Source of the DNA: Bacteroidales bacterium
GTDB lineage: Bacteria; Bacteroidota; Bacteroidia; Bacteroidales; B39-G9
Length of the DNA stretch: 64,000 nt
Direction of reading: 5' to 3'
Assembly (NCBI GenBank): GCA_023133485.1
Contig: JAGLWK010000071.1
Location: 2,181-66,180, forward strand
The position numbers were made by a program, and so were the translations under genes. Below are positions 34,680 through 46,374 of the stretch, in pieces (within the stretch, counting starts at the first letter, position 1; each line of letters starts with the position of its first letter). The notes beneath the pieces are model-generated. The model was not told the DNA's origin, searched no databases, and worked only from the letters and a program-made list of their open reading frames with translations.

Positions 34680-34753
34680 TGACCCAGAGAGGACTCGAAC
34701 CCCCAACCCTCAGAGCCGAAATCTGATATTCTATCCAGTTGAACTACTGGGCC
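34680..34753 (-). tRNA. tRNA-Arg (anticodon UCG)
   Basis: I folded the cloverleaf by hand. The acceptor stem is GGCCCAG/CTGGGTC with one G-U pair, and the D stem is GTTC/GAAT. The anticodon stem is TCAGA/TCTGA with loop TTTCGGC, and the T arm is GGGGG-TTCGAGT-CCTCT. CCA is not encoded. Confidence 0.85.
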
Positions 34754-34965: not shown

Positions 34966-35427
34966 TTAATCATAAAATTCAAAAAGATATTTTTCGTTAT
35001 ATTCAATCCCAAATTTATTAAGGAATTCAATATATTCATCTCTAAATGTTCTCTTTTTATGATGTTGTTGTTGATTTATTATATGTTTTATAACATTATC
35101 TATTTGTGAATGTGAATATGTAAATGCTCCATACCCTGACTGCCAACAAAATTTTGATTTATACCAATTTTTTTCATTTATAAATTTTGAAGAAACTGAT
35201 TTTATTTCCTGAATTGTCTTTGAGATAGAATAAGAAGGATGTTGCCCTAAAAATATATGAACATGATCGGGCATATTATTTATTGCAAGCATTTTACAAT
35301 TACGATTTTGTACAATACCTGTAATGTATTTCTGTAATTCATCATTATTTTCTTGCTTTAGAAAATTAATTCTTCCTTTTACTGTAAAAACGTAATGAAC
35401 ATAAGCCTGTATGAATGAATTTGCCAT
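34966..35427 (-). CDS. IS200-like Y1 (HUH) transposase, REP-associated tyrosine transposase (RAYT)-like
   Basis: 153 aa with YVHYVFTVKGR, the HUH motif PDHVHIFL and the tyrosine motif QSGYGAFTYS. Confidence 0.75.
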   Translation of the reverse strand: MANSFIQAYVHYVFTVKGRINFLKQENNDELQKYITGIVQNRNCKMLAINNMPDHVHIFLGQHPSYSISKTIQEIKSVSSKFINEKNWYKSKFCWQSGYGAFTYSHSQIDNVIKHIINQQQHHKKRTFRDEYIEFLNKFGIEYNEKYLFEFYD

Positions 35428-36563: not shown

Positions 36564-38213
36564 TTAAAAATCGTAATAAAAATTATTTAATGATGTTTTA
36601 ATTCCAAAAGACACAAAACTAGCTTTATTCACAGTTATTTCAGATTTTTCTTCTCTATAAACAAACTCAACAAACACATTCATATAAGTTTTTGGATTAA
36701 TTAGATAGTTGAATCGGAATTTAGCGAATATTAATTCTGTATGTAATCCTTGTCCTGTTTTATTATTATATGAAGGAAAACCTCTTTGTGCCTCATAGTC
36801 GGAACGAAAAATATCTTTTCCCCAGTGAAAATTTGCTGTATCAGCACCATAAACAGCATAATTCAATTTAAATTCAACAAACCAATCTTTAAATCTATAA
36901 TTTAAAATTGTAACCGATTCTTTAAAATTTGCACCAAAGGGATGGGCTAATGCTTGATTATAATGACTGTAATTTTGCAATGGTGTTTTATGTGCATATA
37001 CATAAGGTCTTACATTATTATATTCTGTTTGAAAATACAAATTTGGAATTGAGAATAAATCATAAAACTTTATCCCTAACTGATAACCATATTTATTTAA
37101 GATATAACCACCGTTACCTGTACTATCTTCCTTTGATCTTCCAAAATCAATGTCATCAATAATAAGTTGGCTGTAATATGTAATATTATTGTTGATTTTA
37201 ATTTTAAGATTTGAACCTATTAACGCATTATCGGGAGAACCCAAAGAAAATTCAACAGGACGGTAAAAAATCACAGGGTTTATATAGTTTATGTCAAACC
37301 CTCTGCTTCCTGTAGAATCTGCTCTTTGCCATATAATTGATTCAAACATACCAAAACTTATATATTTGTTAATATTAATGCTTAAATAATGAGTAGTGCT
37401 TTGTTTTCTTTGAAATCCTCCGGGGTAACTATGATTTGAATTCAAGTCCAAATATGTTGTATATAAATTAGTATATTGTAGTTTCCATATATTGGTAGTT
37501 ATTTTAAAGAAAGGATAATTAAAAGAATTATCAGATAATAATAATGACCTGTATCCATCACCAATAAAATTTTTACCATGACCAAATTGGAAATTAAAAT
37601 ATTTTTTGGGCGAATAAGAAATTAATCCTGTAGCATAAGCATAATCATAGCCATTCGTTTTAAAGTTTTTTACAAAACCTTGTCCGGGTACAATTCTGTT
37701 TTTCGATACAAAATCATTTAAATAGCTATTAAAAAAAGATTGATTTTCGCAAAATAATGATTCAAAATAAAGATTATTACCCAAAATACCCTTAATTATA
37801 ATTCCACGTGTGTTATTATAAATTTTAGATATATTTTTACTTTTTTCACTGTTTTCAAGTTCATAACTAAAATTAAAAAGTGGGTCAATCGTTAAATAAA
37901 AATCAGTAGTATCAACAATTATAAAGTTTTCGTATCTAAGCTTTCTTTTGAACCATGAATAATTTTTGTAATCAGCATTTCTGTTGAGCATTAAAACAGA
38001 ATCAAAGCCCGAAGAATCTACAGAAGATATATATGGCTTGAAAGAAGAATGGAAATTTGCTCCTAAATCATTAATAGATTTTTCAATGGTTTGGTTGAGA
38101 TTTCTGTTTAATGGAAGAATTTGTTGAGAAAATAAAGATTTGCAAAACAAAATAAGAAACAGAAAGATGATGGTATTTAAAGAATATTTTGTCATATTAA
38201 TATTGAATTTCAA
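36564..38213 (-). CDS. outer-membrane beta-barrel protein, Wzi/RemB-like (capsule or gliding-polysaccharide assembly)
   Basis: Signal peptide and 549 aa. The FGHGKNFIGDGYRSLLLSD motif and the C-terminal beta-barrel pattern recall Bacteroidota proteins annotated as Wzi-family or RemB. The family call is from memory only. Confidence 0.55.
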   Translation of the reverse strand: MKFNINMTKYSLNTIIFLFLILFCKSLFSQQILPLNRNLNQTIEKSINDLGANFHSSFKPYISSVDSSGFDSVLMLNRNADYKNYSWFKRKLRYENFIIVDTTDFYLTIDPLFNFSYELENSEKSKNISKIYNNTRGIIIKGILGNNLYFESLFCENQSFFNSYLNDFVSKNRIVPGQGFVKNFKTNGYDYAYATGLISYSPKKYFNFQFGHGKNFIGDGYRSLLLSDNSFNYPFFKITTNIWKLQYTNLYTTYLDLNSNHSYPGGFQRKQSTTHYLSININKYISFGMFESIIWQRADSTGSRGFDINYINPVIFYRPVEFSLGSPDNALIGSNLKIKINNNITYYSQLIIDDIDFGRSKEDSTGNGGYILNKYGYQLGIKFYDLFSIPNLYFQTEYNNVRPYVYAHKTPLQNYSHYNQALAHPFGANFKESVTILNYRFKDWFVEFKLNYAVYGADTANFHWGKDIFRSDYEAQRGFPSYNNKTGQGLHTELIFAKFRFNYLINPKTYMNVFVEFVYREEKSEITVNKASFVSFGIKTSLNNFYYDF

Positions 38214-38376
38214 TCGCAGGTTAATTTTTAATTATTTAACTATAATTGTTAAATTGTTATTCTACAACAATGTAGCAATTGAACAATATAATAATTTCAT
38301 TGAGGAAGTTAAATATTTAATTGCTATTGTTATTAATAAAAATAACGTTTTTAGTGAGTTCAGGATATGGGTGATA

Positions 38377-38946
38377 TTATAATATTTTTTGGATTTCTTC
38401 TAATACTTTAGAAAGATTTGTTTCTTTAGATTCTATTATTGTTTTTTGTGTGTTTTCTATTATATGCTTATGATGAGGGAATGTAGCTATTTCGGGATGG
38501 TGGGGTGCATTATCATATCTAAAGATTAAATTTTTATCTTTATTCATTAGGTTATATCTATATTTTAATAAAGAGATGTCATCATTTAATTTAGCAAGCT
38601 CTAAAAATTCTAAAATATAGAAATTTACTATTATTATTTTACCTTGTACTATACCAATTTTAAGGGATTTTACTTCGTATTTAATCTCATGTGTGGCAAT
38701 AATAGGCGATTTTGATACTAATTTTTCTATCCCGATTAATTCATAAACTTAAAAGATAGAATCCTGAATTAATCTGACAGCCTGTTCCGATTTCTCGGAA
38801 ACTTAGTAAAGCTAATATTTTGCTACGCTTCACTTCCAAAATTTAAGCTTTACTAAGTCGGGGTTAACCTGCATTATTTTAATGCTTTACGAAAACGTAT
38901 GAATAATGCAGGCTATAATCCTGAAGTATTCTTTTATATCCTCCAT
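38377..38946 (-). pseudogene. TumE/DUF6516-like toxin gene interrupted by a MITE
   Basis: The 3' part (38377-38730) encodes ...LIFRYDNAPHHPEIATFPHHKH..., with no start codon. The 5' part (ATG at 38946, MEDIKEYFRII) overlaps the upstream gene's stop by 13 nt. Removing 38731-38912 plus one CTAT joins the two parts in frame. Confidence 0.7.
38731..38912 (-). mobile_element. MITE copy A (182 bp, non-coding)
   Basis: Imperfect terminal inverted repeats, a 4-bp duplication CTAT (38727-30 and 38913-16), and near-identity to 45249-45410. Confidence 0.7.
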
Positions 38947-39227
38947 GAATCCAAAATTTTTTTAATCTCCTTATATTCAGTCGTTATCTCACTCAATGCT
39001 TCAAATTCAGATGCCCATAACATAATATCCTGAGAATCTCCCATTTGACCATCACTAAATTTTTGATAGAATTTTTTGGAACTTATATTATGTTTGTTTT
39101 CAAAAATTTTTAATTTTTCTATAGTATTATTTATATTTATTTTCAGTATTTCTAATTCACGCTTTAAAGCATTGTAAATAATTGGAGCCGTAGATGTCGG
39201 CATTTTGAAAGTTGTTGTAGCCGTCAT
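38934..39227 (-). CDS. putative antitoxin partner of the TumE-like gene
   Basis: 97 aa and helical, with its stop overlapping the toxin ATG. The call rests on the gene arrangement only. Confidence 0.45.
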   Translation of the reverse strand: MTATTTFKMPTSTAPIIYNALKRELEILKININNTIEKLKIFENKHNISSKKFYQKFSDGQMGDSQDIMLWASEFEALSEITTEYKEIKKILDSWRI

Positions 39228-39261
39228 ATTATATTATTTTAAGATAATAAAGATAACAAAT

Positions 39262-39909
39262 TTATGTTTTTAAGAATAATTTTATTGATATTATTTGCAA
39301 GTTTTTTACAAGACCTTGTCCGGGTACAATTCTGTTTTTCGATACAAATTCATTCAAATAGGTATTAAAAAAAGATTGATTTTCGCAAAATAATGATTCA
39401 AAATAAAGATTATTACCCAAAACACCCTTAATTATAATTCCACGTGTATTATTATAAATTTGGGATATATATTTGCTTTTTTCACTATTTTCGAGTTCAT
39501 AACCAAAATTAAAAAGAGGGTCTATTGTTAAATAAAAATCAGTAGTATCAATAATTATAAAGTTTTCGTATCTAAGTTTTCTTTTGAACCATGAATAATT
39601 TTTGTAATTAGCATTTCTGTTAATCATTAAAACAGAATCAAAATCTAGAGAAGCAACTGTAGAAATGTATGGCTTGAAAGAAGAATGGAAATTTGCTCCT
39701 AAATCATTAATAGATTTTTCAATGGTTTGGTTAAGATCACGATTGAGCGGCATAATTTCCTGCGCTGTCAAATCTATTAATGATAAAAATAAAATATTAC
39801 AGAAAAGACATAATAACGTCTTGGTATAAATATCTTTTATAAAATAATTAATTGAAGAATCTTTGATGTTAAAAATCTTTTGATTACGATAAATAAATCC
39901 TATCACCAT
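39262..39909 (-). pseudogene. truncated second copy of the Wzi/RemB-like gene (N-terminal third only)
   Basis: 39300-39753 aligns with 37664-38115 at roughly 90% nucleotide identity by eye. The protein matches residues about 33-185 of the full copy, then diverges and stops. Its signal peptide is different. Confidence 0.75.
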
Positions 39910-45248: not shown

Positions 45249-45410
45249 CCCGATTAATTCATAAACTTAAAAGATAGAATCCTGAATTAATCTGACGACT
45301 AAGAAAAGCTAATATTTTGCTGCGCTTCGCTTCCAAAACTTAAGCTTTACTAAGTCGGGGTTAACCTGAATTATATAAGCACTTTATCATAAACGTATGA
45401 ATAATTCAGG
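45249..45410 (-). mobile_element. MITE copy B (162 bp, non-coding)
   Basis: Has the same termini as copy A and a 4-bp duplication TTAA (45245-48 and 45411-14). It supplies the stop codon of the upstream deacetylase ORF. Confidence 0.7.
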
Positions 45411-46374
45411 TTAAAATATTTTTTTTATAATATTCCGCTATTTCTTTTGGTAAACATTTCCAAGTGTTTTTTATTTCAGATAAATAAGTAAGTAATTCTT
45501 CATAATATTTCAGATTATCTTTTTCCAATAAATAATCGGGATGAGTTAAAGCAAGAATAGTTCCATGATTTTTTATTAACCAATCTGTTTTATTTTTCCA
45601 AATATTGATATTTTTTAATTTCAAGGTATAAAACAATACATGGTCTTGCGGTAATGTATAAGGTAATTCAATAAATTTTCCTGATTTAAAAGGCCATATT
45701 GAGCCGGTACCACCCGGGAAAGGCTGAAACGGGTCATAATCGAAACATGATGCATCATACAGAATATCAAGTTGTTGTAACCATTTTAAGTTTCTGTGTA
45801 CTTGTGGTGACCTAAATCCAACAGCATTATATTTTTTTATTGCTTCATTAATATACGGAACACGGGCTTTAAAAATTTTCTCAGAAAAATAAAGTTTCCC
45901 GTCATGGTTATAACCGTGAATACCTATTTCGTGTCCGGCATTTTTTATTTCAGTTAAAATATCTTCATGAATTTTATACTTATATGGTACAATATTCCAT
46001 GAAGATTTAAATTGGTGTTTTTTTTCTAATTCTATAATTTTGGGAATAAAATCAAAACCTTTTTGTGTTTCAACATCATGAGTGAGAACAATAGCTGCTG
46101 AATAATTATCAGGATAAAGCGAATTAATAAATTTATTCCATTCTTCGGAGTTTTGTTTTAAAAAATCAACTAATTCTACCCAAATAAAATTTTTATTATA
46201 TTGAATGTTTTTAGTATAACGGTTTTGAAGATAATGTCTTACAAATAATGGCAATAAAGGACGTGCAAATGAATAATAAAAACGTTTGAATTTATTAAAT
46301 TCAAGATTAAAATCAGATTCTATTAAAAAATGTTTTATTTTATTTTCTGTAAAATATTTTAGCCTAACATCCAT
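45406..46374 (-). CDS. polysaccharide deacetylase (CE4-like; VimE-like role), with a C-terminus altered by the MITE
   Basis: Has the THDVET and IHGYNHDG motifs. The last codons ACC-TGA lie inside the MITE. Confidence 0.7.
   Translation of the reverse strand: MDVRLKYFTENKIKHFLIESDFNLEFNKFKRFYYSFARPLLPLFVRHYLQNRYTKNIQYNKNFIWVELVDFLKQNSEEWNKFINSLYPDNYSAAIVLTHDVETQKGFDFIPKIIELEKKHQFKSSWNIVPYKYKIHEDILTEIKNAGHEIGIHGYNHDGKLYFSEKIFKARVPYINEAIKKYNAVGFRSPQVHRNLKWLQQLDILYDASCFDYDPFQPFPGGTGSIWPFKSGKFIELPYTLPQDHVLFYTLKLKNINIWKNKTDWLIKNHGTILALTHPDYLLEKDNLKYYEELLTYLSEIKNTWKCLPKEIAEYYKKNILT

Follow-up and report, generated by a model that had tools for sequence, protein, structure and literature searches.

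A transposon with IS1380-family ends splits the toxin gene of a TumA-TumE pair in an uncultured cold-seep Bacteroidales bacterium

A stretch of DNA from an uncultured Bacteroidales bacterium appears to carry a small toxin gene in two pieces, with a short repeated sequence between them and a complete partner gene alongside. Has a mobile element recently destroyed the toxin half of a genuine toxin-antitoxin pair and, if so, what kind of element was it, and does the loss matter to the cell? The window, that is, the whole 64,000-nt stretch analyzed here, lies within an 86.9-kb scaffold of a cold-seep metagenome, and the locus in question is found where a long gene cluster for polysaccharide biosynthesis ends. 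Both a T9SS sorting domain and a fusion of LpxC with FabZ in the window point to a member of the Bacteroidota, such a fusion being typical of that group. The best match was 65% identical to Bacteroidales metagenome-assembled genomes (MAGs), and the genome collection therefore holds no close relative of this organism.

The first gene of the locus is an intact, tumA-like ORF of 97 aa (39227 to 38934, minus strand), whose stop overlaps by 13 nt the ATG of the second gene at 38946. Read on the minus strand from this ATG, the tumE 5′ fragment (38913 to 38946; ATG, 11 codons) gives MEDIKEYFRII, its final bases being the right-hand copy of a CTAT duplication (38913-38916), and the frame then runs into the element as ACIIHTFS and a stop, so that the product would be a 19-aa stub (MEDIKEYFRIIACIIHTFS). 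The element itself (copy A) occupies 38731 to 38912 (plus strand, 182 nt), with the left CTAT at 38727 to 38730. On its far side is the tumE 3′ fragment (38377 to 38730, minus strand), which comprises codons 12-127 and a stop, bears a RYDNAPHH...PHHKH motif and forms a start-less frame that extends from 38730 and closes with the TAA at 38379-38377; the sole ORF listed in this frame is a 56-aa piece beginning MNKDKNLIFRYDNAPHH. Deletion of the element together with one CTAT gives 384 nt and a continuous tumE ORF of 127 aa, while the frame is lost if the element alone is deleted or if its borders are shifted by 4 nt. In the source genome the uninterrupted frame fails after 19 aa and tumE is a pseudogene there. 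The initial annotation, made from the DNA letters, had described the ATG at 38946 that reads MEDIKEYFRII before entering a MITE, the 13-nt overlap, the start-less ORF with its stop at 38379-38377, and a continuous ORF of roughly 125-130 aa on removal of 38731-38912 plus one CTAT; our reading of the frames agrees with it on each of these. Within an overall explanation that we consider very likely, the locus is a chromosomal, two-gene type II TumA-TumE operon, with the antitoxin first, the toxin second and a 13-nt overlap between them.

Signals for expression were sought around the pair. A possible Bacteroidota-type -7 promoter element, TAAATTTG, is present at 39257 to 39264 (minus strand), 29 nt upstream of the tumA ATG, and fits TAnnTTTG, which we take to be the consensus of the -7 element of Bacteroides promoters. 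A sigma-70 promoter scan, whose models do not include the Bacteroidota promoter type, returned 17 sites versus 9.8 expected and was of no use here, and a terminator scan found none. A search against Rfam gave nothing at the tumA-tumE locus, the sole match in the window being a tRNA at 34680-34753.

If the two fragments were once a single gene, then the protein encoded by the rejoined frame should read as a complete member of a known family. The 127-aa product matches the Pfam family TumE (PF20126, formerly DUF6516) with 79.1 bits versus a cutoff of 23.4 (E = 2.5e-22), residues 46-126 aligning to profile positions 5-79 of 81. The NCBIfam TumE model NF045777 aligns over residues 4-123 (profile positions 6-122 of 122) with 72.7 bits, which is under the equivalog cutoff of 90, so that membership is at the family level and does not imply equivalence to the proteins tested experimentally. 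The PADLOC model PDC-M44B is likewise covered nearly end to end (positions 6-125 of 128, E = 3.5e-21). A search of 5.8 billion protein clusters identified 416 relatives, nearly all of 120-130 aa and with PF20126; identities over the homologues found ranged from 35 to 57%, and the best relatives are 53-57% identical with 97-100% of the query covered. The N-terminal 11 codons can be aligned (MEDIKEYFRIIEKLV versus homologues MEHIREYFQEIERLV and MGDINHYFTFIEQLI) without a gap at the junction, which falls within a colinear, gap-free block (FRII|EKLV versus FQEIERLV and FTFIEQLI). All 10 columns that are invariant in an alignment of 83 sequences are kept in the reconstructed protein, namely Y67, R81, Y82, D83, A85, H87, P95, H97, K98 and H99.

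An AlphaFold2 model of the reconstructed TumE, built on the homologue alignment (pLDDT 95.6, pTM 0.88), has helices at residues 4-17 and 116-126 and seven strands (21-30, 35-44, 48-58, 62-72, 78-83, 97-102 and 105-110). The two helices pack on a seven-stranded antiparallel sheet, which matches the fold described for TumE in PMC10584680. In this model the insertion, between codons 11 and 12, would sit in the middle of the first helix. A search of the PDB identified no relative of TumE by sequence, nor by fold at E ≤ 0.001, and thus provides no mechanistic lead beyond the inhibition of translation described in PMC10584680. The initial annotation had recognized a TumE/DUF6516 toxin by its RYDNAPHHPE…FPHHKH signature; the Pfam score above the gathering threshold, the ten invariant residues, the two profiles matched along their length and the counterparts of the first 11 codons in homologues all uphold that assignment.

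Is the neighboring 97-aa ORF then the antitoxin? Profile matches alone are modest: NCBIfam TumA (NF045776) aligns to residues 37-82 only, with E = 1.4e-8 and 34.8 bits versus a cutoff of 100, Pfam has no match for the 97-aa partner, and PADLOC PDC-M44A matches it with E = 4.4e-9, the order of PDC-M44A and PDC-M44B being that of the window pair. TumA partners are described as diverse (PMC10584680). Gene neighborhoods are more informative. The closest TumE (P0002, 57% identical) is encoded in a Thermoplasmatales MAG (GCA_964445525.1) and in a Logan contig of SRR7048224, and in both places it is preceded by a 97-aa ORF with the same 13-nt overlap; this partner is 58% identical to the window partner over 95 residues, gap-free. 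More broadly, among 80 TumE loci drawn from species-representative genomes, an upstream ORF homologous to the window partner was detected in 79 (phmmer, E 3e-37 to 1e-6), with a length of 90-109 aa in 71 of these 79. On the strength of this association we assign the 97-aa ORF as an intact gene for a TumA-type antitoxin, and the earlier proposal that the putative antitoxin had been retained whole is confirmed to that extent. By sequence the window pair is thus a member of the TumE-TumA family, to be read without equivalence to the gammaproteobacterial pairs that have been tested.

The relatives of the pair also bear on its origin. The closest TumE (57%) and TumA (58%) relatives are encoded in archaeal MAGs from comparable habitats (loci L002/L004 and L005), and many further relatives of the window pair are found in ANME, Methanoperedens and Methanothrix MAGs. 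This nearest kinship with archaeal sequences hints that TumA-TumE pairs may move between domains in anoxic sediments. A 439-bp direct repeat (406/439 identical, 92%) brackets the tumA-tumE cassette, at 37663-38101 and 39299-39737. The upstream copy makes up the 5′ portion of a gene of which a truncated ORF of 215 aa (39262 to 39909, minus strand) remains, and the downstream copy is part of a full 549-aa gene (36564 to 38213, minus strand) with a weak, sub-threshold match to the Wzi capsule-assembly family; in the source run the depth of each copy is like that of the flanks. The repeat suggests that the cassette came in along with a second allele of the 549-aa gene, or through recombination inside such an allele. 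Relatives of this flanking gene are 36-43% identical and are uninformative on how the cassette entered.

We turned to the metagenomes themselves for evidence that the gene had been whole. Logan contigs of four cold-seep metagenomes were aligned to the locus, including the source run (X1) and a run from a different cold-seep sample and a different study (X3). In X1, separate contigs span both junctions, from 38067 to 38760 (depth 26) and from 38883 to 39342 (depth 34), at depths like those of the flanks, and no empty-site contig was present among the X1 contigs. In X3, a 222-nt contig joins 38560-38726 to 38913-38967 with 0 mismatches. Its joint skips exactly 186 nt, with 4 nt that fit either side, leaving one CTAT and an unbroken tumE, and it was also recovered at the 97% likeness setting; no occupied junction was found at the tumE site in X3. 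The contig is short (222 nt), has a depth of 2.5 and comes from one run only, and in a k-mer assembly such a contig requires reads that span the junction. Word depth is ∼950 and ∼557 over two bins of the element versus ∼25 on the flanks, and 38731 and 38912 are the exact positions at which many metagenome contigs diverge, from which we conclude that the element is a multi-copy repeat with precisely these ends. The borders and the CTAT duplication put forward in the initial annotation are therefore those seen in the metagenomes, its suggestion to look for the uninterrupted gene in relatives has been answered by the X3 contig, and its description of a toxin gene broken by transposition holds, with a frame that stops after 19 aa in one allele and is intact in the other.

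As the metagenome contains the element in high copy number and the window is a metagenomic scaffold, an assembler could have threaded a high-copy repeat into an intact tumE. The unique-flank contigs of X1, which come from an independent assembly, reach 30 nt beyond each border into the element and cross both junctions at flank-like depth, with no empty-site contig in the same run, which argues against such an error. The 4-nt duplication, and a frame that is restored only on removing one copy of it, are also unlike a mis-join, and we regard an assembly artefact as very improbable. In a separate observation, one X1 contig joins 38392 to 40363 and skips 1970 nt, comprising the whole cassette and part of an oxidoreductase gene; the shorter side of this joint is 21 nt and the two neighborhoods share no 9-12-mer.

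The empty site may be read in two directions. It could derive from the occupied allele by precise excision, in which case the element would be active and the knockout reversible. The joint does restore exactly one CTAT and leaves no footprint, and the element family is abundant in the metagenomes, at a depth ∼40 times that of the flanks. piggyBac transposons excise precisely, and IS1380 transposases are treated as prokaryotic relatives of piggyBac (as the outgroup in PMC10813416). Against this, the empty allele was found only in X3 and the occupied allele only in X1, which fits two strains better than somatic excision, and because contigs drop rare variants, excision within X1 would be invisible either way. 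We consider precise excision improbable. Since the occupied and empty forms were found in different samples, it is more likely that the empty allele is ancestral. That the two alleles are identical across 222 nt, and that the split tumE has no second lesion, indicates a recent insertion.

What was inserted? The element ends in imperfect 15-nt terminal inverted repeats (CCCGATTAATTCATA / CCTGCATTATTCATA, 11-12 of 15 matching) and forms three to four strong hairpins when folded as single-stranded DNA (-35.1 kcal/mol, z = -8.0). It is 182 nt long and non-coding, has inverted repeats and target duplications, and occurs in multiple copies with different flanks, and is on these grounds a MITE. A second copy in the window (copy B, 162 nt, 45249 to 45410, plus strand) is ∼80% identical to copy A, has a TTAA duplication and is without a 21-nt internal hairpin that is present in copy A. 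Four complete copies have the duplications CTAT, TTAA, TTAG and TTAG; two of them, both TTAG-flanked, are from a JGI metagenome, which also holds one truncated copy preceded by TTAA.

Some features of the two window copies are worth recording in their own right. The extra stem-loop of copy A consists of 21 nt at 38779-38799 (GCCTGTTCCGATTTCTCGGAA), absent from copy B; contigs of X1, X3 and X4 that diverge at 38778 carry on as the shorter, copy-B form, and depth drops to ∼81 at 38794 within the stem-loop, the rest of the element being at several hundred or more. Copy B is inserted at the extreme 3′ end of a 322-aa polysaccharide-deacetylase ORF (45406 to 46374, minus strand). This ORF ends ...KKNILT and a stop, and without the element would read ...KKNILREKIKFNMFFD and a stop, its last 11 codons having been swapped for one codon and a stop.

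Finding relatives of the element in genome contigs required shorter words, a 25-mer and a 20-mer, as an exact 48-mer had no match there. The 20-nt left end, CCCGATTAATTCATAAACTT, was found at 105 stretches in the species-representative genomes searched, in several Bacteroidales/Bacteroidota MAGs, in two Latescibacterota MAGs with dozens of copies each, and in single Chlorobiota, Fibrobacterota, Chitinivibrionales and KSB1 MAGs. Among these matches, the internal sequence of the window element occurs only in the Bacteroidales-type copies; other matches are unrelated short elements of ∼160-295 nt that have the identical left end. A single IS1380-type transposition system seems to serve several MITE families across phyla. 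For 50 of 110 left ends, a right end with a matching 4-nt duplication could be paired (CTAA 22, TTAG 17, TTAA 6, others 5), which sets the duplication at 4 bp and the target at roughly YTAR; the CTAT of tumE is an uncommon variant.

Three long elements with these ends were found, and one of them identifies the family. This element (L254:1195-2841), from a Latescibacterota MAG, is 1647 nt long, has a CTAG duplication and is identical to the window element over the left 20 nt, while its right end matches that of the MITE at 11 of 15 positions. Its 444-aa ORF scores 401.9 bits against the IS1380-family transposase model NF033539 (cutoff 180) and 530 bits against PF13701. Because the left 20 nt are shared with an element that encodes an IS1380 transposase, we assign the window element as a MITE with IS1380-family ends, so that the label given in the initial annotation is retained and made more specific, as IS1380-derived. 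The one full-length partner of the MITE to be identified is in Latescibacterota MAGs, and there is no IS1380 transposase within the 64-kb window. The cold-seep metagenomes themselves contain short fragments that are ∼80-85% like the L254 transposase gene, which is too little to place a transposase in the source genome. Another long element with these ends (L182, minus strand, 1747 nt) has an IS1182/IS5-like transposase split over two ORFs, with a DUF772 domain, and is probably another insertion sequence nested within a MITE copy.

An alternative source of mobility is encoded nearby. The tRNA gene at 34680-34753 (minus strand) adjoins a 153-aa ORF for an IS200/IS605 Y1 transposase (34966-35427; NF033573, 78.7 bits), 3.3 kb away from the element, and as the element is built of strong hairpins it could instead be a REP or IS200/IS605-type hairpin element moved by this Y1 enzyme and not a DDE-type MITE. 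IS200/IS605 Y1 elements are not known to make target duplications of the kind seen here, whereas every complete copy of the window element has 4-nt direct repeats that vary between copies. The ends are, moreover, inverted repeats, the left 20 nt being identical to an insertion sequence that encodes an IS1380 DDE transposase. The duplications and the IS1380 ends together contradict the neighboring Y1 transposase as the mover, and the chance that the element is of this hairpin type is very low.

We therefore return to the reading in which an IS1380-type MITE recently inserted into tumE, giving a null allele and leaving the antitoxin intact, which we hold with high confidence. The 182-bp non-autonomous transposon separates codon 11 from codon 12, having duplicated the CTAT at which it inserted. 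Since it shares its ends with insertion sequences of the IS1380 family, a transposase of that family in the same cell presumably mobilized it in trans. The tumE frame now stops at 19 residues, midway along the first helix, with a stub that lacks the whole fold, and the 56-aa ORF that starts at an internal ATG is without the first helix and the first four of seven strands. With the 19-aa stop, and with no usable start other than the internal ATG of the 56-aa fragment, the allele is null. By analogy with the members studied in PMC10584680, TumA of an intact operon would bind and neutralize TumE and would probably repress the operon, and intact TumE would arrest growth through a block of protein synthesis, possibly by RNase activity. 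tumA and its upstream region are untouched, which leaves an orphan TumA. Expression of this orphan is plausible, and none of the RNA runs searched for the locus contains it.

The loss of TumE with TumA retained may have been selected. The orphan antitoxin could protect the cell, as an anti-addiction or immunity factor, from incoming mobile DNA that bears TumE, or could act as a transcription factor. This proposal involves the same structure as the explanation above and differs from it in evolutionary meaning alone. TumA is conserved and of full length, the assembly of the source sample contains the occupied allele alone, and TumE-TumA pairs are widespread in similar sediment communities, including in archaea, so that incoming copies are plausible. 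However, an insertion this recent, with 0 mismatches and no decay, leaves too little time for the retention of tumA to signal selection, and survivorship alone accounts for insertions in the toxin gene and not in the antitoxin gene: only toxin hits are survivable, these are the ones that are seen, and no special selection is needed. An advantage of toxin loss, or immunity conferred by an orphan antitoxin, is possible, if unsupported, and we consider selected loss unlikely.

A more far-reaching combination can be put together from the same observations. In it, one IS1380 system would be active across the FCB phyla of anoxic sediments (Bacteroidota, Latescibacterota, Chlorobiota, Fibrobacterota and KSB1) and would have given rise to MITE families that are unrelated apart from the same 20-nt end; the footprint-free empty site would reflect live, precise, piggyBac-like insertion and excision in bacteria, making tumE a reversible switch; and the orphan TumA would provide immunity against incoming TumE modules. 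Taken as a whole, this cross-phyla transposition system with a reversible toxin switch and orphan-antitoxin immunity is improbable.

On the preferred reading, namely a recent IS1380-type MITE insertion in tumE, the window tumE is a divergent, broken member of a known toxin-antitoxin family that was inactivated by a known kind of event. Our understanding of toxin-antitoxin systems and of MITEs is unchanged by it, and the case is clean but ordinary: as hits in antitoxin genes would kill the cell, decay through mobile-element hits in toxin genes is to be expected. The TumE-TumA pairs were described only in 2023, and the locus adds a divergent Bacteroidales subgroup whose nearest relatives are archaeal. 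The natural tumE null and the matching intact allele form a ready-made pair for toxicity and neutralization tests. For an uncultured sediment bacterium, the locus also captures a recent transposition of which both the occupied and the empty site were recovered, and ties an abundant MITE to IS1380-family ends and a YTAR-like 4-bp target. Of greater interest are two by-products, namely the empty site that was recovered and an IS1380-type MITE family with a 20-nt end common to several phyla.

The TumE-TumA superfamily was described by Durairaj et al. (Nature 2023, PMC10584680), where toxicity of TumE, inhibition of translation and neutralization by the cognate partner were demonstrated only for six gammaproteobacterial pairs. 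Like other members of the superfamily, the window TumE has the Pfam domain above threshold and the RYDNAPHH...PHHKH core, has a predicted fold of two helices and seven strands with no relative in the PDB, and is preceded by a small partner gene with which it forms an overlapping bicistron. It differs in that the pair scores below the NCBIfam equivalog cutoffs built on the tested group, in its Bacteroidales host with nearest relatives in archaeal MAGs, and in that the toxin gene is interrupted, so that no active toxin is expected. The pair also resembles the candidate defense system PDC-M44 of PADLOC, its partner and toxin matching genes A and B in the same order; however, the window copy is broken, and PDC systems are candidates predicted from genomic association.

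The element compares in a similar manner with insertion sequences of the IS1380 family, in that its ends begin CC and it has a 4-bp target duplication. Both the size range of elements in this family and its 4- to 5-bp duplications fit the window element. On the other hand, the window element has a length of 182 nt, has no coding capacity and has an internal sequence unrelated to that of the insertion sequence, and its right end is like the IS right end at 11 of 15 positions. The term IS1380 has 0 occurrences in a 2024 review of prokaryotic MITEs (PMC10969869). Among the work cited in that review is a case of MITE inactivation in nature, in the mcy microcystin genes of Baltic Anabaena. There, as in tumE, a short non-autonomous element in a coding region gives a natural null and uninserted alleles are present in the environment. 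The difference lies in the target, which in the window is the toxin half of a toxin-antitoxin pair, and for that reason the loss of tumE is expected to be harmless to the cell.
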